Shown here one piece after another: positions 1 through 14,799 of a DNA stretch of 14,799 nt. Origin of the DNA: a virus (taxonomy: Duplodnaviria > Heunggongvirae > Uroviricota > Caudoviricetes); the IMG/VR virus record IMGVR_UViG_2654587540_000008; one strand, 5' to 3'. A program made the position numbers and the translations under genes. Numbering within the stretch: the stretch's first letter is position 1; every line of letters starts with the position of its first letter. Below the pieces are notes generated by a model. The model did not search any database and was not told where the DNA came from. It saw only the letters and a program-made list of their open reading frames with translations.

Positions 1-1023
1 ATGAGTGCTGGCAAGGGAGTGTTGCTCGTCATCTGTCTGTTATTTCTGCCGTTGAAGTCTGCGCTTGCCCTGAACTGCTACTTTGGTTCATCCGGTGGCT
101 CGGTAGAAAAATCAGAAGCGATTCAACCTTTTGCTGTACCAGGCAATGCCAAACTCGGCGATAAGATTTGGGAATCTGACGATATTAAAATTCCCGTCTA
201 TTGTGACAACAATACCAACGGCAATTTTGAAAGTGAGCATGTTTATGCCTGGGTAAACCCCTACCCGGGGGTGCAGGATCGCTATTATCAACTCGGCGTA
301 ACTTACAATGGCGTTGATTATGACGCCAACCAGGGAAAAAGCCGCATCGACACTAACCAGTGTATTGACAGTAAGAACATTGACATTTATACCCCTGAGC
401 AGATTATCGCGATGGGATGGCAGAACAAAATTTGCTCGGGTGATCCCGCTAATATTCACATGTCGCGTACCTTTCTCGCTCGCATGCGGTTATACGTCAA
501 AATACGAGAAATGCCGCCGCATGATTATCAAAGTACGCTTAGCGACTATATCGTCGTGCAATTTGACGGTGCCGGTAGCGTTAACGAAGACCCTACTGCC
601 CAAAACCTGAAATATCATATTACTGGTCTGGAAAACATTCGCGTGCTGGATTGCAGCGTCAATTTTTCCATTTCACCGGAAACACAGGTGATTGATTTTG
701 GTAAATTTAATTTGCTGGATATTCGTCGCCACACAATGTCGAAAACATTCAGTATTAAGACGACAAAATCACAAAATGACCAATGCACCGACGGATTTAA
801 AGTCAGTTCCTCCTTTTATACCGAAGAAACGTTGGTTGAAGAAGATAAAGCATTGTTGATTGGTAATGGTCTGAAGCTACGTTTGCTGGATGAAAACGCC
901 TCGCCTTATACCTTCAATAAATATGCTGAATACGCCGATTTCACCAGCGATATGCTGATCTACGAAAAAACCTATACGGCTGAACTTTCGTCCATTGCAG
1001 GCACCCCCATTGATCAGACATGA
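1..1023 (+). CDS. Secreted protein with N-terminal signal peptide, possibly a fimbrial/pilus adhesin-like protein (host-side gene, product uncertain)
   Basis: 340-aa ORF with stop at 1021-1023. N-terminus [23 protein letters not shown] has a hydrophobic core and an A-x-A cleavage-type motif. Cys pair in the mature N-terminal part and a beta-rich C-terminal region ([13 protein letters not shown]...YTAELSS) loosely resemble the pilin domain of two-domain fimbrial adhesins. Lower GC than the phage genes. No homology search was possible. Confidence 0.5.
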
Positions 1024-1206
1024 GATAAATGAAGGGGGATCCGTGAGATAAATAACGAATTGGAGTGGGTTAACATGGGTTCTGGTGAACAGAACTGAAA
1101 TTCTTTTTCGCTATACGATAGATAAGTCGGACATTGAAATCATCCTTTCTGGCAACTTAGAATCGAGTTTGCTGAAACATGACCCGTAACAAAAAGGATG
1201 ATTCCA

Positions 1207-1368
1207 ATGACTACTCAAAACAATAAGCATGACAGCCTTGATTACTCAGAAAAGCCCAAAAGCAAGCACATCGTGACGTTCGAGCGCGATTCCGGTAGAA
1301 AAGGAGAATCGTCTTCCTCTGCCAATAAAAACACTATGCCGGCAGCTCCTGCTCCGGGGAAAAAATAA
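1207..1368 (+). CDS. Small hydrophilic ORF (53 aa), hypothetical
   Basis: ATG at 1207 preceded by AAGGA about 8 nt upstream; encodes MTTQNNKHDSLDYSEKPKSKHIVTFERDSGRKGESSSSANKNTMPAAPAPGKK, stop TAA at 1366-1368. Below the 60-aa cutoff of the ORF track. Converges on the minus-strand gene ending at 1372. No recognisable domain. Confidence 0.2.
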   Translation: MTTQNNKHDSLDYSEKPKSKHIVTFERDSGRKGESSSSANKNTMPAAPAPGKK

Positions 1369-1371
1369 ACA

Positions 1372-2004
1372 TCATTCATCGCTCGTTGCACGAACGCGCC
1401 TGATCTCCACTCTGGCAATCTGATCTGCTGGAATATAGGTTGCCAGAGCTCCCCAGTACTTATCAACCACGCCTTTATACTCTTCCCATTCGTTACTGCC
1501 TGAAGGGCTGCTGTGTGTGACGTAAAGAACCATATCGCCTTTATTCCCCAGGGTAAACGGACCGTTAGGCCACTCTTCAAAGTTCCCTGGCAGTCGTGAC
1601 ATCATACCGGAACCATCGCGAAGAATCACTCTGACCTCGGTGACGCTGAAGTCTGTTTGATCAAACATTGCCTGCCATGCTGAGCTGGTATCGTCAGACC
1701 ATGAAATATCATTATTCCACAGTAATCTGTACATCCATTTGCGACCGTACCTGCGCCACCACGCACCGCATGTAACAGCACACAGAAGTGCTGGTGGTGT
1801 TGCCAGCCAGGCATTCAGACCTGCCCACATAACAACCTGGTAAGCCATCATTGCTGTCAGGCCAAAAATTAGCGAAGAAAAAGTCACCTCAATGGGTTTG
1901 TGCTGATCCTTCAGCCCCACATTCGCAATAAAATACCCAATATAGCCACTGGTCAGAGTCACCAGTGTTGCCCATGGCAAATTTAACAACGAAACGTCAA
2001 ACAT
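1372..2004 (-). CDS. Membrane protein with N-terminal hydrophobic helices and a soluble C-terminal domain, hypothetical; possible prophage moron
   Basis: The ORF track gives 1372..2082, but its first ~25 codons overlap the terminator hairpin. The likely start is the ATG at 2004 (MFDVSLLNL...), preceded on the minus strand by AGGGAG. Three hydrophobic segments are followed by a ~110-aa hydrophilic domain. It sits in its own unit downstream of the mor terminator. Confidence 0.55.
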   Translation of the reverse strand: MFDVSLLNLPWATLVTLTSGYIGYFIANVGLKDQHKPIEVTFSSLIFGLTAMMAYQVVMWAGLNAWLATPPALLCAVTCGAWWRRYGRKWMYRLLWNNDISWSDDTSSAWQAMFDQTDFSVTEVRVILRDGSGMMSRLPGNFEEWPNGPFTLGNKGDMVLYVTHSSPSGSNEWEEYKGVVDKYWGALATYIPADQIARVEIRRVRATSDE

Positions 2005-2040
2005 ATTTTCTCCCTGCATCCTGAATACTACAGAGAGAGC

Positions 2041-2077
2041 ATAAAAAAAGCACGGTAAGGGGTCTACCGTGCTTTTA
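2041..2077 (-). terminator. Rho-independent terminator (bidirectional hairpin) ending the minus-strand mor operon
   Basis: Perfect 11-bp inverted repeat AAAGCACGGTA (2047-2057) / TACCGTGCTTT (2065-2075) with a 7-nt loop AGGGGTC. It is flanked by an A7 run at 2043-2049 (a U-run on the minus-strand transcript) and TTTT on the plus strand. Lies 40 bp downstream of the Mor-like stop. Confidence 0.7.
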
Positions 2078-2118
2078 TACAATAAGGAGATTTTTGAAAG
2101 GACTTTAACAAGCAGGAA

Positions 2119-2517
2119 TTATCTGGATTTGTTAACGTCTCTCGTCTCCTCTGGCAGATCTTCATCAAACAACCTGCCCTGCATCCGATCCAGTTCTTCT
2201 TTTCTTACCCGCTTAACCACGCTGTAGACCCACTGAAGCGAAACACCAAATTTGCGGGCCAGTTCGTGGTGGTTGCGTCCGTTAAACTCCCTGAAGATTT
2301 CCCGGTCGCGCTGACTGACCTTCCATACCATGCCCATCGGGAAATAAACGTTTTGCCCGCCCCAGACCTGCATCATTCGGTTCGCGACAGCCTGACCAAT
2401 CTGGTCGGCAATTGCGGGCTCAATATCAATAATCTCGCGAACGGTCTCAGAGGTATGCTGTGCCAGTTCCACCAGGAGTTCCGGCCCTTTACTTCGAAAC
2501 TGATTCAGGTCGCTCAT
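2119..2517 (-). CDS. mor: Mor/C-family transcriptional activator (Mu middle-operon regulator-like)
   Basis: 132-aa ORF. The C-terminal half WGGQNVYFPMG...REIFREFNGRNHHELARKFGVSLQWVYSVVKRVRK matches the Mor/C-family GGQ.VY.P...FNGRN..EL...YGV....VY..I.R.R pattern as I recall it for Mu Mor. AGGAG lies 6 nt upstream of the ATG at 2517. Confidence 0.8.
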   Translation of the reverse strand: MSDLNQFRSKGPELLVELAQHTSETVREIIDIEPAIADQIGQAVANRMMQVWGGQNVYFPMGMVWKVSQRDREIFREFNGRNHHELARKFGVSLQWVYSVVKRVRKEELDRMQGRLFDEDLPEETRDVNKSR

Positions 2518-2938
2518 GTTTTACTCCTGCAGCTCTGCGCTGCCACTTCTTCAGTTTCTCAATAACACTGCTTGCCTGTTCAGTACTGAGCCAGCGCAGA
2601 GCGCTGATGCCCGTTTCCCGCTTGATCCACCGCGCTAATGCATTTTCTGAACGGTCACGAACAATGCCGGCAGCAGCCATTTCAAGCCATAGTGCACGGA
2701 TTTTCCTGGACTGCGGATGGTTATCCAGCGGTAAACCGGAGCTGGCTTTTCCGGCAGGCTTAACGCGAAAGCCTTTCCTTTTCATGGACTCAAGCACGCA
2801 GTTTAGTTGTGTGATATCCATTACTTTGGTTGAGGCCTTACCAGTCAGCCCCTGTAACACCTGGCGGTAGGTGTCTTCATCTAGGCCCAGTTCATTACGG
2901 GCAATATGGATAAGCTGAATCAGTCGTTTTTTCTGCAT
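2489..2938 (-). CDS. GemA-like protein (Mu gp16 / DUF1018-like), immediately upstream of mor
   Basis: 149-aa ORF starting MQKKRLIQLIHIARNELGLDEDTYRQVLQGLTGKAS, resembling the N-terminal motif of Mu GemA-family proteins. Its position directly 5' of the Mor-like gene, with a 29-bp overlap, matches Mu gene order (gemA-mor). Confidence 0.5.
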   Translation of the reverse strand: MQKKRLIQLIHIARNELGLDEDTYRQVLQGLTGKASTKVMDITQLNCVLESMKRKGFRVKPAGKASSGLPLDNHPQSRKIRALWLEMAAAGIVRDRSENALARWIKRETGISALRWLSTEQASSVIEKLKKWQRRAAGVKHERPESVSK

Positions 2939-2939
2939 A

Positions 2940-3143
2940 TCAGCCCCGCTTTTTCAGTCTGCCAGCAGCAATGTCAGTTGCAGCCGGCAGGGTCACAGGC
3001 CAGAACAGTATGACAGCTGTCATATACAGGATGTAATACGCGGTGTCATAGTGGTTACCGAAGCCCAGTGCATAATGAAGCCGGGCACTGCATAATCCTG
3101 CATATGTGTACCAGAAAAGAAAACAGGCAATAGTTTCAGCCAT
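2940..3143 (-). CDS. Small hydrophobic protein, hypothetical
   Basis: The track ORF is 2940..3164; the ATG at 3143 (MAETIACFLFWYTYAG...) gives an 8-bp overlap with the upstream gene. Two hydrophobic segments. Tightly packed within the minus-strand operon. Confidence 0.35.
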   Translation of the reverse strand: MAETIACFLFWYTYAGLCSARLHYALGFGNHYDTAYYILYMTAVILFWPVTLPAATDIAAGRLKKRG

Positions 3144-3543
3144 TATATTTTTTCTCCAGTTCAATATTTTTCAGGTCATTTTCCGCAAACAGGATTGCTG
3201 TTCTGGCACTCCGCAATCGTGCTTTCGCATTTTTTTCTTCACGTTCAAGGCCAGCGACAGATTCACGAAGAGCTTCTCGCTTTTTATGAAGACGATTAAT
3301 TTCATGCACGATATTTTCAGCATTACGGGCACGGTCAAGGATAAATTCAAATGGATCCAGTACAGCCCCACACAGTGAACAGGTCAGCGTCCGGTTGATT
3401 TCAGAGACTGTTGTCCGGGCATGCCGGCACAGGTTTTGTTCGTTATTCTTTCGTTCAGAAATAACCACGTTCAGCAGTTTTTTGGCTTCTGCATCAGGAG
3501 CTGGCTGAAGCAAATGAATAATGTTATCGCTGTCGTTATCCAT
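3136..3543 (-). CDS. Hypothetical protein with a Cys-containing segment and a coiled-coil-like C-terminus
   Basis: The track ORF is 3136..3642; the likely start is the ATG at 3543 (MDNDSDNIIHLL...), with GGAGG 6 nt upstream and an 8-bp overlap with the end of the upstream gene. Contains C..H....C.LCG spacing and a K/E/R-rich C-terminal helix. Confidence 0.5.
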   Translation of the reverse strand: MDNDSDNIIHLLQPAPDAEAKKLLNVVISERKNNEQNLCRHARTTVSEINRTLTCSLCGAVLDPFEFILDRARNAENIVHEINRLHKKREALRESVAGLEREEKNAKARLRSARTAILFAENDLKNIELEKKYNG

Positions 3544-4225
3544 TATATGCCTCCAGTTTCTGTTGTTCCTGCCCACTGACCGGTCGGTGCAGTCTGACGT
3601 TCTGCCCTTCTCGAAACCCCGCATAGCGCGAGGCGTCGCCATTGCGGCTTCTTCCCGGTTTACGCGCTCTGGTGGTTTGCGTTTGCGGGTATTTATGTTC
3701 CAGCCACTGCTGCATCAGTTCACGTTCGTCATCGGTCAGGGCGAAGGACTGTATTTCACTGATAACGGCCAGCACCCAGCCTTCAGCAAACTGGTCACCA
3801 CGGCTGGTACGGGTGGCAGTTTTTATTCTTTTGTTCTGTGTGCTGATATACTGCTGACGCGCCTTTTTCAGCTGGCGGGCCAGCACTTCCCAGGTGTATG
3901 CAGCCAGTGCAGCCCGTTCCCGGTTGCCGTAGAACCCCACACCCGGATATGTGCCGGGGTGAATGATGGAGTTAACACCAAATGCCTCGCGGATGATGTT
4001 CATCAGGCCCAGCATGTAGCGCGGTGGACGGAGACTGCCTGTCGGCCAGTAATGACTGATGGTTTCATCAATATCACTCATGGCAATGTCGGAATGTGTG
4101 ATGCCGTGAACATCCATCAGTTTACGGGCACGGCGCAGTGCCAGAGCGGCTTCGTGTGGGTTGCCGGATGCGGCCAGCGCCAGCAACTTTTTCAGTTTCT
4201 CAATGTGTTTATTCTGGTCTGTCAT
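3536..4225 (-). CDS. DUF2786-like protein (N-terminal KLKKLLALAASGNPHEAALALRRARKLM motif)
   Basis: 229-aa ORF. The N-terminal motif matches the DUF2786 family signature as I recall it. GGAG lies 8 nt upstream of the ATG at 4225, and the start overlaps the upstream stop in an ATGA arrangement. Confidence 0.6.
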   Translation of the reverse strand: MTDQNKHIEKLKKLLALAASGNPHEAALALRRARKLMDVHGITHSDIAMSDIDETISHYWPTGSLRPPRYMLGLMNIIREAFGVNSIIHPGTYPGVGFYGNRERAALAAYTWEVLARQLKKARQQYISTQNKRIKTATRTSRGDQFAEGWVLAVISEIQSFALTDDERELMQQWLEHKYPQTQTTRARKPGRSRNGDASRYAGFREGQNVRLHRPVSGQEQQKLEAYNG

Positions 4226-4437
4226 TGTTCAGTATCTCCGGTATTTTTCTGCCGTTTCCATGCCCGGACAGCGTCGGACAGCTCTTTCAGGCTGTATGCT
4301 GCTTTAAGCTTTTCCCATAACCACTGTGTTGTTATGTGCATCAGCAGGGCAGCCAGGGCTGCCCCCGCACTGAGGCATGTCGCCAGGCCAGTAAGAATCA
4401 GTGTCCATGCGGTGATTTCCCTGAGTATGTCAGCCAT
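4222..4437 (-). CDS. Small membrane protein, hypothetical
   Basis: 71 aa with one strongly hydrophobic segment (WTLILTGLATCLSAGAALAALLM). GGGAGG lies 6 nt upstream of the ATG at 4437. The stop overlaps the downstream start (ATGA), suggesting translational coupling. Confidence 0.5.
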   Translation of the reverse strand: MADILREITAWTLILTGLATCLSAGAALAALLMHITTQWLWEKLKAAYSLKELSDAVRAWKRQKNTGDTEQ

Positions 4438-4451
4438 TGAATGCCTCCCGG

Positions 4452-4748
4452 TTACTCGTTCGTGTAAATCACGCCCAGTCGTGCAGCCAGACGTTCCAGT
4501 TTTTTCTGTTTGTGGAAGTCAATCAGCCGGTCCATCCCCTGAAGGCGCAGCTGCTCTGTCATGATTTCCACGTCTGCCAGCTCTGCCGCGAGGTCACTTT
4601 CGCTGCCCTGTCCGTTCAGGTTGCGGGCGGCACTGGCCGCCAGTTCGGCGGCCTCTTCTGTCAGTTTCAGGGCCTGTGCATCCGGCCCGAAACGCTGCAG
4701 AGCCAGACGATAGAGGGCAGTGCGTGTGAGTATGGTGTTCCGTGTCAT
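4452..4748 (-). CDS. MazG-like nucleotide pyrophosphohydrolase domain protein (phage-type, ~100 aa)
   Basis: 98 aa. Pattern FGP...EEAAEL....ELADVEIM..QL...G.D.....K.KK..R resembles small phage MazG-like proteins. GAGGG lies 5 nt upstream of the ATG at 4748. First gene of the minus-strand operon. Confidence 0.5.
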   Translation of the reverse strand: MTRNTILTRTALYRLALQRFGPDAQALKLTEEAAELAASAARNLNGQGSESDLAAELADVEIMTEQLRLQGMDRLIDFHKQKKLERLAARLGVIYTNE

Positions 4749-4845
4749 GCCGCGCCCTCAGTGCTTCCGGTCGACGGTGATGTGCAGGCCGCCTTCTGCA
4801 GTGGTTTCCATCCGGTATCTGGCCAACATCTTCCGCGTCGGTGGC

Positions 4846-9128: not shown

Positions 9129-9205
9129 TGTTTCTTGAACATATTACCCGTGACGGAGAGCGCTGGGATTCTCTGTGGATGAGGCACTGGCCATTGATGT
9201 GCTGA
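9128..9205 (+). pseudogene. Short out-of-frame leader ORF (MFLEHITRDGERWDSLWMRHWPLMC), possible remnant N-terminus of a deleted or frameshifted tail gene
   Basis: ATG at 9128, 25 codons, in a different frame from the J-like ORF that opens at 9175. The J-like protein lacks the N-terminal part expected for baseplate J proteins. The GDxWDSL motif is reminiscent of LysM-like tail protein X N-termini (weak). Confidence 0.3.
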
Positions 9206-10560: not shown

Positions 10561-11643
10561 ATGGCAAATCTACCCGAAACCCCGCAGTGGGAAAGCGGCA
10601 TCTACCAGATTGAGGTCTCTGACCCCGTTCTGGGCGGACCTGACGGAATTTCTAACCGCCAGGCTAAACAACTGGCCAGCCGAACGTCATACCTCAAACA
10701 GAAGGTCGAAAAAAGCGAAACAGACCTGGCTGCACATATCGCGGCAGTTGACCCGCATACCCAGTACGCGACGAAAGCCAGTCCGACATTCACCGGCACA
10801 CCAACAGCACCTACACCTGCAAATGGTGATAACAGCAAAAAGCTGGCGACGACGGAGTTTGTGGCCAAAGCACTTGCGGCACTTGCAGGCAGCGCCCCTG
10901 AGACACTGGATACGCTTAAAGAGCTGGCTGACGCTCTCGGTAATGATCCAAACTTTGCGACTACGGTACTGAACAAGCTGGCGGAAAAGCTGGCTAAAGA
11001 CCAGAACGGCGCAGATATTCCTGAGCCTGCGCTGTTTGTCAAAAACCTTGGTTTGGGGGAAGGCTCTGCACTGCCCGTTGGTGTGCCTGTTCCGTGGCCA
11101 TCAGCAACACCGCCAGAGGGATGGCTGAAATGTAACGGCGCAGCATTTTCTTCTGAAATGTACCCCAAACTGGCAAAGGCTTATCCCACGAATAAATTAC
11201 CGGATTTACGGGGTGAATTTATCCGTGGCTGGGATGACGGACGTGGCGTGGATGCGGGGCGAACATTACTGGGTGCTCAGGATTTTGCGTTTGAAGATCA
11301 TGCTCTGGGGCTACCTACCAATCAGGGATATGCAGGTATTGAGAAAGGTAGCACTGAAAATGATATTTATGCCGCTTTCTCTGATGGCATGCACTATACA
11401 GGGAATGCAACCAGTAGCGGTCAATGGGATGATTATTCTCAGTCAAAAATCTATATCCGTAGTGATGGTAAACCTGTCGGAAATAACATTGAGTTAGCTA
11501 ATTCAAATGAGGCCTTGCGTTCTTCTTTACGTACTTATAGAGCCAGTACAGGATGGTATAACCCAGGATTAAACAAACCTAAAACAGCTACAGAAACACG
11601 TCCACGCAACGTTGCTTTTAATTACATCGTAAGAGCCGCATGA
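10561..11643 (+). CDS. Tail fibre protein: constant N-terminal part (10561 to about 11047) fused to currently expressed variable C-terminal cassette A
   Basis: 360 aa. The N-terminus has phage tail-fibre repeat-like sequence (VDPHTQYATKASPTFTGTPTAPTPANGDNSKKLATTEFV). The C-terminal part begins with a tail-collar-like module (WLKCNGAAFSSEMYPKLAKAYPTNKLPDLRGEFIRGWDDGRG) and ends ETRPRNVAFNYIVRAA. The crossover site lies inside the gene at 11036-11061. Confidence 0.85.
   Translation: MANLPETPQWESGIYQIEVSDPVLGGPDGISNRQAKQLASRTSYLKQKVEKSETDLAAHIAAVDPHTQYATKASPTFTGTPTAPTPANGDNSKKLATTEFVAKALAALAGSAPETLDTLKELADALGNDPNFATTVLNKLAEKLAKDQNGADIPEPALFVKNLGLGEGSALPVGVPVPWPSATPPEGWLKCNGAAFSSEMYPKLAKAYPTNKLPDLRGEFIRGWDDGRGVDAGRTLLGAQDFAFEDHALGLPTNQGYAGIEKGSTENDIYAAFSDGMHYTGNATSSGQWDDYSQSKIYIRSDGKPVGNNIELANSNEALRSSLRTYRASTGWYNPGLNKPKTATETRPRNVAFNYIVRAA
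11036..11061 (+). other. Serine-invertase crossover site (hix/gix/cix-like), expression-site copy
   Basis: TTGTCAAAAACC-TT-GGTTTGGGGGAA has the 12-2-12 architecture and AAACC nn GGTTT core of hixL (TTCTTGAAAACC AA GGTTTTTGATAA) and gix sites, as recalled. It sits exactly at the constant/variable junction of the tail fibre gene. Confidence 0.7.
11048..11253 (+). repeat. Conserved 5' cassette module, copy A (tail-collar-like domain coding, ~200 bp)
   Basis: Encodes GLGEGSALPVGVPVPWPSATPPEGWLKCNGAAFSSEMYPKLAKAYPTNKLPDLRGEFIRGWDDGRG. Near-identical DNA recurs at 11649, 12193 and, inverted, at about 13990-14194, with a partial inverted copy at about 13592-13700. Confidence 0.85.
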
Positions 11644-11662
11644 AAACGTTGGTTTGGGGGAA
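11637..11662 (+). other. Crossover-site-like sequence at the cassette A/B junction, with a degenerate left half-site
   Basis: CGCATGAAAACG-TT-GGTTTGGGGGAA. The right half and centre are identical to the expression-site copy; the left half retains only the AAAAC core (5 of 12 matches). Confidence 0.4.
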
Positions 11663-11854: not shown

Positions 11855-12187
11855 ACAGGACGTGTTTTATTAAGTAATCAAACAGATGCTTTTCAAACAC
11901 ACAGACATAAGACCTATTTTTATGCAGGTATCAACCGTAATGAAATGCCTTTAAAAAATTTACCTGAATCAGAAGAAATGCTGACATTAAGCTCTACAGT
12001 TAATGCCTTGTCTCCAGCCGATATTGATGCCACAAATTCATTAATTGGGAATGACGATTACAACTGTGTTATTGAAGGCAATAAAAACAGTAAACGTACA
12101 GCGACAGAGTTGAATACCAGCTCTACAGGCACAACAGAAACCCGCCCCCGCAATATTGCTTTTAACTTCATTGTAAGAGCAGCATAG
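11651..12187 (+). CDS. Silent alternative tail-fibre C-terminal cassette B (no independent start codon or RBS)
   Basis: Open frame beginning right after the stop of cassette A. It encodes the same 65-aa tail-collar module, then a divergent ~95-aa region, and ends with the conserved ETRPRNIAFNFIVRAA and TAG. The track start is an internal TTG with no Shine-Dalgarno sequence. Confidence 0.7.
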   Translation, partial: GLGEGSALPVGVPVPWPSATPPEGWLKCNGAAFSSEMYPKLAKAYPTNKLPDLRGEFIRGWDDGRGVDTGRVLLSNQTDAFQTHRHKTYFYAGINRNEMPLKNLPESEEMLTLSSTVNALSPADIDATNSLIGNDDYNCVIEGNKNSKRTATELNTSSTGTTETRPRNIAFNFIVRAA

Positions 12188-12206
12188 AAACGTTGGTTTG
12201 GGGGAA
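12181..12206 (+). other. Crossover-site-like sequence at the cassette B/C junction, with a degenerate left half-site
   Basis: AGCATAGAAACG-TT-GGTTTGGGGGAA; same right half and centre as the expression-site copy. Confidence 0.4.
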
Positions 12207-12398
12207 GGCTCGGCGCTGCCTGTTGGCGTGCCGGTTCCATGGCCGTCAGCCACACCGCCAGAGGGCTGGCTGAAATGTAACGGCGCAGCATTTTCTTCTG
12301 AAATGTACCCCAAACTGGCAAAGGCTTACCCCACCAATAAATTACCGGATTTACGGGGTGAGTTTATTCGTGGCTGGGATGACGGGCGCGGAATTGAC
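12193..12398 (+). repeat. Conserved 5' cassette module, copy C
   Basis: Near-identical to copies A and B; the encoded peptide is identical through GWDDGRG. Confidence 0.85.
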
Positions 12399-12665
12399 TC
12401 TGGTCGCAACCTGTTATCTGCACAGAATGATGCAATTCAGAATATTGTTGGTTCTTTTGGGCGTACCCAGCTTTTTAAAGACGTTCTTAGTTCAGGACCA
12501 TTTAGTAGAATTAATCAAGTTTTATCTATTGGTCTAAAGGAAACGGAATTTATTGAGGGTTATGGAGCTTATAACTGGACATTCGACGCTTCTCGAGCGG
12601 TTCGTACAGCATCTGAAACCCGCCCCCGAAATATTACATTTAACTATATCGTGAGGGCGGCTTAA
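12195..12665 (+). CDS. Silent alternative tail-fibre C-terminal cassette C
   Basis: Same conserved 5' module, a divergent middle (..NLLSAQNDAIQNIVGSFGRTQLFKDVLSSGPFSRINQVLSIGLKETEFIEGYGAYNWTFDASRAVRTAS..) and the conserved end ETRPRNITFNYIVRAA, stop TAA at 12663-12665. No start codon context. Confidence 0.7.
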   Translation, partial: GLGEGSALPVGVPVPWPSATPPEGWLKCNGAAFSSEMYPKLAKAYPTNKLPDLRGEFIRGWDDGRGIDSGRNLLSAQNDAIQNIVGSFGRTQLFKDVLSSGPFSRINQVLSIGLKETEFIEGYGAYNWTFDASRAVRTASETRPRNITFNYIVRAA

Positions 12666-12671
12666 TTATGA

Positions 12672-13289
12672 TCAACTGACAGTTGCCAGAGGCATTTCCG
12701 GCCAGTTGATATCCGGCGCAGTGCTGAGGTCAGTCGCATTAAGCGCATCTATAAAATCAAGCACGGCGTTCAGTTTTTCCGTCTCCTGTGGCGTCAACTG
12801 GCGTCCGGCTCGTAGTTTGAGATTTATAAGCTCAACGGATGCCATTGCCTGCTCCTCAAGTTGCTGACGATGCGCTCCGGCAGCTTCCAGTTCTGCAGTG
12901 TGCTGTCGTTCCGTATCTGTCACCCAGTTCTCACCATCCCAGATATCATAGATGGTAGCTGGCTGTTTTACCGTCGTATCAGAAGGGTAATCTCCCGGCT
13001 GTGTGATTTGCACAGCGTTACCATTCTCTGTGCTGTAAACCGTCTCGCCTCTGTGGTCTGGGACATATTTCCAGATGTTCTGGTCGGTATCACGACAGAC
13101 AGCGAAGCCAGGGCGCTCTTCCGGTGGCGCGTCAATGCATGAATGAGCCGGAATTCCAACACCATAAGCGAGATATTCAACAGTGGCAGAGAGATATTCA
13201 CGGTTTTCAGCATCGTAGTTATAAACTGTAATATCGCCTGCAGTTGTAGCGATACCATTCTGATCAAGTACTGCAACAGCGTTATTCAT
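12672..13289 (-). CDS. Tail fibre assembly protein (Tfa; Mu U / P2 gpG / lambda Tfa family)
   Basis: 205 aa. The C-terminus ..LNAVLDFIDALNATDLSTAPDINWPEMP has the typical Tfa ending. The start codon overlaps the stop of cassette D as TAATG (translational coupling). It converges on cassette C with 6 bp between stops. Confidence 0.8.
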   Translation of the reverse strand: MNNAVAVLDQNGIATTAGDITVYNYDAENREYLSATVEYLAYGVGIPAHSCIDAPPEERPGFAVCRDTDQNIWKYVPDHRGETVYSTENGNAVQITQPGDYPSDTTVKQPATIYDIWDGENWVTDTERQHTAELEAAGAHRQQLEEQAMASVELINLKLRAGRQLTPQETEKLNAVLDFIDALNATDLSTAPDINWPEMPLATVS

Positions 13290-13700
13290 TAAATAGCCCT
13301 TACAATATAGTTAAACGCAATATTACGGGGGCGGGTTTCTGTTCCTGTATTCCCTCCGTTGACACCTAACCTGTACACACCACGAGTGCCAATAGCACGT
13401 AGTGAAGATGGAACCTTTACGCCTGACTCATCTGTTTTAACTATCCCTCCATCCCCGTATGTAGCCAGTATACCAGGATTTGTACCTGCACGTGTGCTGT
13501 TTGCAGCAAGCCCTTCACCGGTCCATAACTCCATATAGTGAGTATGATCCATAACCGAATGTGGTTGTGCATTAAGCAAGAAACGCCCTGAATCAATTCC
13601 CCGTCCGTCATCCCAGCCACGAATAAACTCACCCCGTAAATCCGGTAATTTATTGGTGGGGTAAGCCTTTGCCAGTTTGGGGTACATTTCAGAAGAAAAT
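13289..13700 (-). CDS. Alternative tail-fibre C-terminal cassette D (inverted orientation, 5' end truncated by an N run), followed by tfa
   Basis: Minus-strand frame encoding ..SSEMYPKLAKAYPTNKLPDLRGEFIRGWDDGRGIDSGRFLLNAQPHSVMDHTHYMELWTGEGL...TGTETRPRNIAFNYIVRAI. The first ~100 bp of the conserved module are missing where the N run 13701-13710 sits. Confidence 0.7.
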
Positions 13701-13710
13701 NNNNNNNNNN
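13701..13710. other. Run of 10 N at the cassette E/D junction; assembly gap or masked sequence
   Basis: By comparison with the A/B and B/C junctions, about 97 bp of conserved sequence (crossover site plus start of the tail-collar module) is expected here, so the 10 N do not represent true length. Confidence 0.9.
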
Positions 13711-13715
13711 CGTTT

Positions 13716-14194
13716 CTATGCTGCTCTTACAATGAAGTTAAAAGCAATATTGCGTGGACGAGTTATATTAAAAAATGACCCACTTAAAGCAACTTTGGAA
13801 CGGCTATTGGCGTTACCCAGAGATGCGTACCATAAATAATCGCTCCGATAATCAGTTGAGAATGTTTTATCACCGCCATAATCAATGCTATTACCGTTAC
13901 TCATATATGAAATATCAACTGAAGCATCATTGTCATCTCTACCACCAACTAAAGTACCTTTCTGCCACCCAAGCAACTGGCGGCCAGGATCAATTCCCCG
14001 TCCATCATCCCAGCCACGAATAAACTCACCCCGTAAATCCGGTAATTTATTCGTGGGATAAGCCTTTGCCAGTTTGGGGTACATTTCAGAAGAAAATGCT
14101 GCGCCGTTACATTTCAGCCAGCCCGCTGGCGGTGTGGCTGACGGCCACGGAACAGGCACACCAACGGGCAGTGCAGAGCCTTCCCCCAAACCAA
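13716..14194 (-). CDS. Alternative tail-fibre C-terminal cassette E (inverted orientation)
   Basis: Minus-strand frame encoding the full conserved module (one substitution, PPAGW instead of PPEGW), a divergent middle (..QLLGWQKGTLVGGRDDNDASVDISYMSNGNSIDYGGDKTFSTDYRSDYLWYASLGNANSRSKVALSGSFFN) and ITRPRNIAFNFIVRAA. The track's upstream extension to 14228 runs through the N run and is not trusted. Confidence 0.7.
13990..14194 (-). repeat. Conserved 5' cassette module, copy E (inverted)
   Basis: Reverse complement is near-identical to 11048-11253. Confidence 0.85.
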
Positions 14195-14204
14195 NNNNNN
14201 NNNN
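14195..14204. other. Run of 10 N exactly where the crossover half-site of cassette E is expected
   Basis: On the minus strand the sequence reads ...CTTTGTTTTG-N10-TTGGTTTGGGGGAA. The N run replaces the left half-site and lies 22 bp upstream of the invertase start. Confidence 0.9.
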
Positions 14205-14226: not shown

Positions 14227-14799
14227 ATGCAAATTGGCTACATTCGTGTGTCAACAAATGACCAGAATACAGATTTACAACGAAACGCACTGAACTGCGC
14301 AGGATGTGAACTGATTTTTGAAGATAAAATCAGCGGAACAAAGTCAGCCAGACCAGGATTGAAAAAGCTACTCAGAACTTTATCAGAAGGAGATACGCTC
14401 GTTGTCTGGAAGCTGGACAGGCTGGGCAGAAGCATGAAGCACCTTATCACTCTTATTGAGGAACTGCGGGGAAAAGGGGTTAACTTCCGTAGCCTTACAG
14501 ACAGCATTGATACGTCAACACCCATGGGACGTTTCTTTTTTCACATCATGGGGGCTTTGGCGGAAATGGAGCGTGAATTAATAGTTGAACGAACACTGGC
14601 CGGACTTGAAGCAGCACGTGCACAGGGGCGTATTGGCGGACGCCGTCCGAAACTGACAAAAGAGCAACATGAACAAATAGCAAGGCTGATCAAAAATGGC
14701 TATAGCAGGAAACAACTGGCAATTATTTACGATATCGGCATATCGACGATTTATCGTTATCACCCGGTAGAAAAGCTACAAACTCAAACTGAGTTGTAA
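14227..14799 (+). CDS. Gin/Pin/Cin/Hin-family serine DNA invertase
   Basis: 190 aa. MQIGYIRVSTNDQNTDLQRNAL...DTLVVWKLDRLGRSMKHL...FRSLTDSIDTSTPMGRFFFHIMGALAEMERELIVERT...GRIGGRRPKL is near-identical in motif content to Gin/Pin/Hin as recalled. The catalytic Ser is at position 9 and there is a C-terminal helix-turn-helix. The track ORF from 14074 is an upstream artefact; stop TAA at 14797-14799. Confidence 0.92.
   Translation: MQIGYIRVSTNDQNTDLQRNALNCAGCELIFEDKISGTKSARPGLKKLLRTLSEGDTLVVWKLDRLGRSMKHLITLIEELRGKGVNFRSLTDSIDTSTPMGRFFFHIMGALAEMERELIVERTLAGLEAARAQGRIGGRRPKLTKEQHEQIARLIKNGYSRKQLAIIYDIGISTIYRYHPVEKLQTQTEL

Follow-up and report, generated by a model that had tools for sequence, protein, structure and literature searches.

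A run of ten Ns in the invertible tail-fibre locus of a Mu-like Escherichia coli prophage is very probably a scaffolding gap in place of 97 bp

The window examined here, which is the whole analysed stretch of 14,799 nt, contains a tail-fibre locus in which a constant fibre part, five alternative cassettes, one chaperone gene and an invertase gene are laid out as follows.

10561–11643, plus strand: expressed fibre open reading frame (ORF), constant part Sc (10561–11047) fused to cassette A (11048–11643)
11036–11061: Sc/A crossover site, TTGTCAAAAACC-TT-GGTTTGGGGGAA
11649–12187, plus strand: cassette B, with the A/B crossover site at 11637–11662
12193–12665, plus strand: cassette C, with the B/C crossover site at 12181–12206
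12672–13289, minus strand: tail fibre assembly (chaperone) gene tfa, the sole one in the locus, directly downstream of D
13289–13700, minus strand: retained part of cassette D (nt 98–509), whose stop codon (13289–13291) overlaps the start of tfa
13701–13710, no strand: first N run (gap 1), read below as a scaffold gap hiding 97 bp
13711–14194, minus strand: complete cassette E, 484 bp between the N runs, from its own TT core (14193–14194) to the next left half-site (13711–13722)
14195–14204, no strand: second N run (gap 2), read below as a scaffold gap hiding about 44 bp
14227–14799, plus strand: Gin-family serine DNA invertase, 190 aa

The first 215 nt or so of each cassette form a conserved head coding for a phage tail Collar domain, and each head is preceded by a crossover site consisting of a left half-site, TT and GGTTTGGGGGAA. 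These sites are 26 bp long, with two 12-bp half-sites around a 2-bp core. Three of them are complete in the window and share a TT core; Ns conceal one half of the D site and one half of the E site here, and both sites are complete in relatives. Three heads are oriented along the plus strand and two along the minus strand. The invertase contains a resolvase domain (PF00239, 2.7e-51) and a helix-turn-helix domain (PF02796, HTH_7, 1.4e-13), matches the Gin structures 3UJ3 and 4M6F at E values of about 1e-90 over residues 1–185, and keeps the motif YIRVSTNDQ. Its gene shares 73% DNA identity with gin of phage Mu, and the 5' part is clearly homologous to gin. Five cassettes are thus accompanied by a single tfa gene, which follows D, converges on C and runs antisense to the expressed Sc-A fusion in the scaffolded isomer.

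Outside the fibre locus, window 1–4815 has no match to the sheath/tube region of related prophages, and position 4816 lies inside the tube gene of the prophage in E. coli M114. This stretch contains Mu-like early and middle genes on the minus strand, including GemA (2489–2938) and a late transcriptional activator (2119–2517). At window 9169–9175, we found a deletion of 2,510 bp relative to M114 (L024 10361–12870) with a 7-bp overlap at the junction. This deletion takes tail protein X, a gpD-like protein, baseplate V, gpW/gp25 and the first ~285 nt of baseplate J; the prophage cannot make a baseplate. Judged by its gene content, the element is a rearranged, defective Mu-like prophage, here without head and sheath genes. 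Near-identical tail/invertase modules in other assemblies (L001, L003 and L004–L013) adjoin different chromosomal genes depending on the strain, namely fepE/entF, yccX/tusE, abrB/nei, a GST/dacC-like region and a mannose PTS operon. These varied neighbours indicate that the element inserted at many sites, as expected of a Mu-like transposable phage.

A count of all non-ACGT letters established that the window contains exactly two such runs, both of 10 N, at 13701–13710 and 14195–14204; an earlier note on this DNA, made from the letters alone, had likewise described the first as exactly 10 N. Read along the minus strand, gap 1 is flanked by ...GTAAGAGCAGCATAGAAACG, the tail of cassette E that forms the left half-site of the crossover site, and by ATTTTCTTCTGAAATG..., the head of cassette D from nt 98 onward. 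In the deposited record, it is bracketed by GAAGAAAAT and CGTTTCTATGC. At both intact junctions, A/B and B/C, the landmarks GTAAGAGCAGCATAGAAACG and ATTTTCTTCTGAAATG lie 97 bp apart (for example, 12193–12289). The homologous E/D junction in the complete genome of E. coli A31 (L003, 92–94% identical) also measures 97 bp (L003 3913–4009). Two draft assemblies, L004 and L007, keep the E-to-D adjacency with a fill of 97 bp (L004 3493–3589), and their flanks are 100% identical to window 12188–13700 and 13711–14194. The estimate of about 97 bp in the earlier note is therefore exact.

Based on these comparisons, gap 1 is predicted to hide, at the E/D crossover site, the TT core with the right half-site, followed by nt 1–97 of the D head. 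The corresponding fill, taken from relatives, is given here in the orientation of the window.

Predicted gap 1 fill, plus strand: GCTGCGCCGTTACATTTCAGCCATCCCTCTGGCGGTGTTGCTGATGGCCACGGAACAGGCACACCAACGGGCAGTGCAGAGCCTTCCCCCAAACCAA

The site expected in front of cassette D would read TTGGTTTGGGGGAAGG. Seven assemblies (L004, L005, L007, L008, L009, L010 and L013) share one and the same D head (TTGGTTTGGGGGAAGGCTCTGCACTGCCCGTTGGTGTGCCTGTTCCGTGGCCATCAGCAACACCGCCAGAGGGATGGCTGAAATGTAACGGCGCAGC...), irrespective of the sequence upstream of it. For this reason, the fill can be predicted with confidence, and for strain 912, the source of the window (see below), it is a prediction from the sequences of relatives. 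The note had regarded the D crossover site as missing. This holds for the TT core and the right half-site, which are hidden, but not for the left half-site (...AGAAACG, 13711–13722), which is retained. The note also put the loss at two thirds of the conserved module; this was too high, as 97 nt correspond to about 45% of the ~215-nt head. In relatives, the intact cassette D is a 167-aa ORF with a match to the Collar domain. Because of gap 1, the same cassette in the record (L006 3590–4001) looks like a 136-aa ORF without any Pfam match.

The origin of the Ns could be traced to a public record. Through a look-up by identity of the tfa protein, we found that the window is 100% identical over 6.1 kb to contig JWJM01000115.1 (GCA_000806195.1; L006), both N runs included. 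A second look-up with the invertase returned the same JWJM01000115.1 record (L018) in the orientation of the window, again with both N runs. Hence, the Ns belong to the public record. One could suppose that they come from masking by a database or by the tools used here, since some stretches of a collection were described as N-masked. Masking, however, would keep the length of the sequence, and here 10 N stand in place of 97 bp and of 44 bp; moreover, the same Ns were present in the record that was fetched independently via a protein index. Because neither N run is length-preserving, both masking and a literal reading as ten uncalled bases are excluded, and we give masking practically no credence. 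Masking by our own tools was rejected on the same two grounds, the changed length and the presence of the Ns in the public record. The project JWJM00000000 is the genome of E. coli 912 (ST101, O11), which was sequenced on a MiSeq instrument (500 cycles, 2 × 250) from Nextera XT libraries (PMC4704421) and assembled with CGE Assembler 1.0, described as "based on the Velvet algorithms" (PMC4704421; also PMC4915688). The "phages" collection held no close relative of the cassette region, the best match covering 34%, and an exact-pattern scan of viral_contigs with E-specific and D-specific 35–38-mers returned no matches.

Where Velvet estimates a distance of 10 or less, it writes 10 N, its minimum filler, and a node added after a gap contributes only the sequence past its first k − 1 bases. 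In the papers searched, we found neither of these two rules stated, nor the k of the CGE pipeline, and PMC4704421 gives no k. In all strains, the first 136 nt of the D head match the A head (window 11048–11183) exactly in inverted orientation, and nt 75–193 are likewise an exact inverted match to the C head (window 12267–12385, 119 nt). The stretch hidden in gap 1 is thus covered by exact repeats of 136 nt (A/D) and 119 nt (C/D). The D head can also be described as a mosaic that follows the A head over nt 1–136 (L004 3493–3628) and the C head over nt 75–193 (window 13605–13700 plus the gap), and in L011 the heads of C, D and E are mosaics of another composition. These patterns suggest gene conversion among heads.

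To relate the repeats to the gap edges, de Bruijn unitigs were computed for k = 21–127 on the locus rebuilt with the 97-bp and 44-bp fills. At k = 97, a value fitted to one gap edge, a unitig ends exactly at 13700 and the next long unitig begins at 13702 of the reconstructed locus. The two are separated by three short nodes, which contain 23, 34 and 40 k-mers; their total of 97 equals the number of missing nucleotides, and two of these nodes are two-copy repeats. Given the k − 1 rule stated above, the text after the Ns is expected to resume at 13702 + 96, which is window 13711, as observed. A value of k = 45 was rejected as a single explanation, since it matches the start of the E piece and fails at the 13700 end.

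From these observations, we propose how the gap may have formed. At k = 97, the D-head stretch would split into three short nodes, two of them two-copy repeats, and Velvet could not thread this stretch because nt 1–136 of the D head copy the A head and nt 75–193 copy the C head. Velvet would then have bridged the short nodes by read pairs and written its minimum filler. An accurate distance estimate would give about 97 N, so the estimate of Velvet would have been off by about 90 nt; a misestimate of this size plausibly fits the insert sizes of Nextera libraries. The positions of the N runs are not a matter of chance, because both abut crossover cores exactly: position 13711 follows the E/D core, and position 14194 belongs to the core between the invertase-proximal half-site and cassette E (inv/E).

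Other drafts also break inside cassette heads, namely L009 and L010 at the equivalent of window 11185, L012 at 13660 and L013 at 12357. In L021 (GCA_000488035.1, KI530615.1), a run of at least 1382 N (L021 1–1382) starts about 52 nt into a cassette head, exactly where the heads begin to differ. An identical invertase adjoins this run, at the same chromosomal site (abrB/nei side).

We are therefore highly confident that the 10 N at 13701–13710 are a Velvet scaffolding gap in the draft of E. coli 912 and not a biological feature, and that the real DNA at this place is 97 bp long. The value k = 97 and the exact behaviour of Velvet are what we infer in this account; documented here are the length of the gap, its repeats, the identity of the assembler, the predicted fill and the existence of isomers across strains. 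The static k = 97 model leaves gap 2 unreproduced, which counts against this account. The suggestion in the earlier note that repeated or invertible sequence caused an assembly gap is borne out by the Ns in the deposited record, the Velvet-based pipeline, the exact repeats of 136 and 119 nt and the graph edges at k = 97.

According to a different reading, cassette D of strain 912 truly lacks its crossover site and 5' module, with the 10 N approximating the true length as ten uncalled bases. No observation speaks positively for such a deletion, even if the difference of 87 nt (97 − 10) is a multiple of three, which keeps the record in frame across the Ns, and even if other real deletions exist in this prophage. 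Against it, each of the two N runs has a length of exactly 10 and is located at a crossover core, the assembler is a scaffolding one, and the gap edges are those expected by the k = 97 graph for an intact head. Furthermore, the remainder of D is 100% identical to the D of L004 and L013, in which the head is intact. We consider a true deletion extremely improbable.

Conversely, the DNA behind gap 1 could be longer than 97 bp if, for instance, an extra cassette, an IS element or some other segment separated E from D. A scaffold gap does not in principle reveal its true size, E. coli A31 has a sixth (pseudogene) cassette beside its invertase, and L021 shows that a very long gap can occur in this region. 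However, sister strains with 100% identical segments carry exactly the five cassettes of the window, in L004 and L007 cassette D comes directly after E across a junction of 97 bp, and the edges of gap 1 match abutting nodes. Since all five cassettes of the sister strains are present in the window, no cassette is missing, and a hidden extra cassette was rejected on this ground. A longer insert at gap 1 is accordingly very unlikely, and we retain 97 bp as its length.

The locus is a multi-site inversion system driven by a Gin-family serine invertase. Inversion between any plus and any minus site reshuffles the five alternative C-terminal cassettes (A, B and C on one strand, D and E on the other) and switches the cassette that is fused to the constant part. 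By enumeration, 48 isomers are reachable from the five sites. Among nine assemblies with an identical tfa protein, we identified at least seven arrangements of the same cassettes (98–100% identical), and all arrangements in other strains can be derived by plus × minus inversions.

Window: Sc-A B C / tfa' D' E'
L004: Sc-A B E D tfa / C' (one inversion from the window, same chromosomal site)
L005: Sc-D tfa / C' E' A' B' (the "canonical" constant-D-tfa arrangement)
L007: Sc-C / tfa' D' E' B' A'
L008: Sc-A D tfa / C' E' (without B)
L010: Sc-B D tfa / C' E' A'
L009: ...A E B C / tfa' D'

The 12 nt before TTGG vary among four types across strains, and the head stays with its cassette. Since heads move with cassettes while the preceding 12 nt change, the point of exchange lies within the site itself, where the left half-site meets TTGG. 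All four kinds of left half-site were seen in front of the D head, including that of the constant part (L005: constant-D-tfa), from which it follows that the D site is functional in this lineage. In agreement with the earlier note, the D crossover site cannot be assessed from the window alone; the relatives show that it exists, that it is predictable and that it is used. L008 (GCA_023828135.1) contains only four cassettes (A, D, C and E). The absence of B in this assembly would fit a deletion between two directly oriented sites. The isomers themselves were observed across strains. For inversion within strain 912 itself the evidence is indirect; it is plausible, and we rate the chance that the sequenced culture was mixed at slightly below even.

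This question bears on gap 2. By comparison with relatives, this gap is predicted to cover about 44 bp, made up of the invertase-proximal left half-site (..GACGAAAACG) plus the spacer that precedes the ribosome-binding site of the invertase gene.

Predicted gap 2 fill, plus strand: CGTTTTCGTCTTAACTTCCATCTATACCAGCCATGTATTTTTAA

Because gap 2 covers the region just upstream of this ribosome-binding site, the promoter of the invertase is unreadable from the window. The static locus at k = 97, the value that fits gap 1 exactly, predicts no break at 14195–14204, and no k in the range 21–127 reproduces gap 2 from the repeats of the window itself. To yield the observed edges, the reads must also contain the E head joined to a left half-site with a different first base, and only the site of the constant part (...AAACC) has one. 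In addition, the invertase-proximal half-site must also occur before a head that agrees with E over 52 nt before diverging, as heads of the A/B/D type do. Both of these junctions arise from a single Sc/A × inv/E inversion, which gives 14194 and 14205 exactly; other single inversions fail.

These results raise the possibility that the scaffold order is one of several coexisting arrangements, and that the N runs, at least the second, mark heterogeneity made by the invertase and not merely static repeats. The failure of the static locus to break at gap 2, the junctions provided by the Sc/A × inv/E inversion and the at least seven arrangements of identical cassettes in nine assemblies all point in this direction. 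The exact 97-mer that the edges require had no match at 100% identity in 5426 complete E. coli genomes, which makes a paralogue an unlikely source, although paralogous sequence elsewhere in the genome of strain 912 may still have supplied it. On the other hand, the one-step isomer alone misplaces the right edge of gap 1 by 5 nt, and its rescue needs extra assumptions on the coverage cut-off of Velvet. As a single admixture, all four gap edges are fitted by only two isomers, and these are three to four inversions away. The Sc/A, A/B and B/C junctions were assembled gap-free, which is also at odds with a mixture. Taken together, we judge this possibility to be nearly, but not fully, as probable as its negation. 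No specific isomer mixture was adopted, since the one-step candidate fails at gap 1 by 5 nt and the full fits lie three to four steps away.

Somewhat more speculatively, both N runs may be the footprint of a culture in which the Gin-family invertase was still shuffling the five cassettes despite the loss of head, sheath and baseplate genes; we lean modestly against this idea. The edges of gap 2 would then encode coexisting junctions, one between the constant part and E and one between the invertase-proximal half-site and a head of the A/B/D type, a proposal that we regard as tentative and as rather less probable than an even chance. If true, the gap edges of draft assemblies could be searched at little cost for signs of active inversion systems.

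For gap 1 itself, the interpretation as a scaffolding gap means that the N run is an artefact of little biological weight, and the sequence behind it is predictable with high confidence. The record taken alone could nevertheless mislead, because in it the constant-D-tfa isomer seems unreachable, whereas relatives show that this isomer is both reachable and realised. More generally, loci with multi-site inversion systematically break short-read assemblies at their recombination modules.

Finally, both the gap and the locus can be compared with known systems. Like other Velvet scaffold gaps, gap 1 has a short N filler of fixed size, is located at repeats longer than k and has a length that bears no relation to the sequence it hides; the assembler is documented (PMC4704421). 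Nothing material differs, except that the repeats here are the recombination modules of an invertible locus. Classified by its sequence, this locus is a Gin-family, Min-like multiple inversion system with five sites and five cassettes, and as such of a known kind. The plasmid p15B, which carries the Min system, contains six crossover sites. This system and its invertase were reported in 1990 (Sandmeier et al. 1990 PNAS 87:1109, as cited in PMC5903667; Iida et al. 1990, as cited in PMC6906374). Going by the title of the report on p15B and by general knowledge, both systems have a Din-family serine invertase beside more than two crossover sites that shuffles the 3' ends of tail-fibre genes, and both have overlapping invertible segments that afford many isomers. 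In contrast to p15B, the present locus has five sites, five cassettes, one chaperone gene and 48 isomers, and it is chromosomal, within a deleted Mu-like prophage. The R64 shufflon is alike in that several inverted sites permute the C-terminal exons of one gene. However, its recombinase Rci is a tyrosine recombinase and its target is the pilV adhesin, which places our locus outside that family.

Programmed inversions of tail fibres in prophages are well documented (PMC9881135; PMC5903667). In the G segment/Gin system of Mu, as in the C segment/Cin system of P1 and the P segment/Pin system of e14, the crossover site occupies the same position within the fibre gene as it does in the window. The gix site of Mu (TTATCCAAAACC-TC-GGTTTACAGGAA) and the Sc/A site match at 20 of 26 positions, and the gene order baseplate–fibre–chaperone–invertase is common to Mu and this locus. 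Unlike Mu, which has two sites with a TC core and two pairs of cassette and chaperone, this locus combines five sites with a TT core, Collar-domain cassettes of 155–196 aa and a single chaperone.
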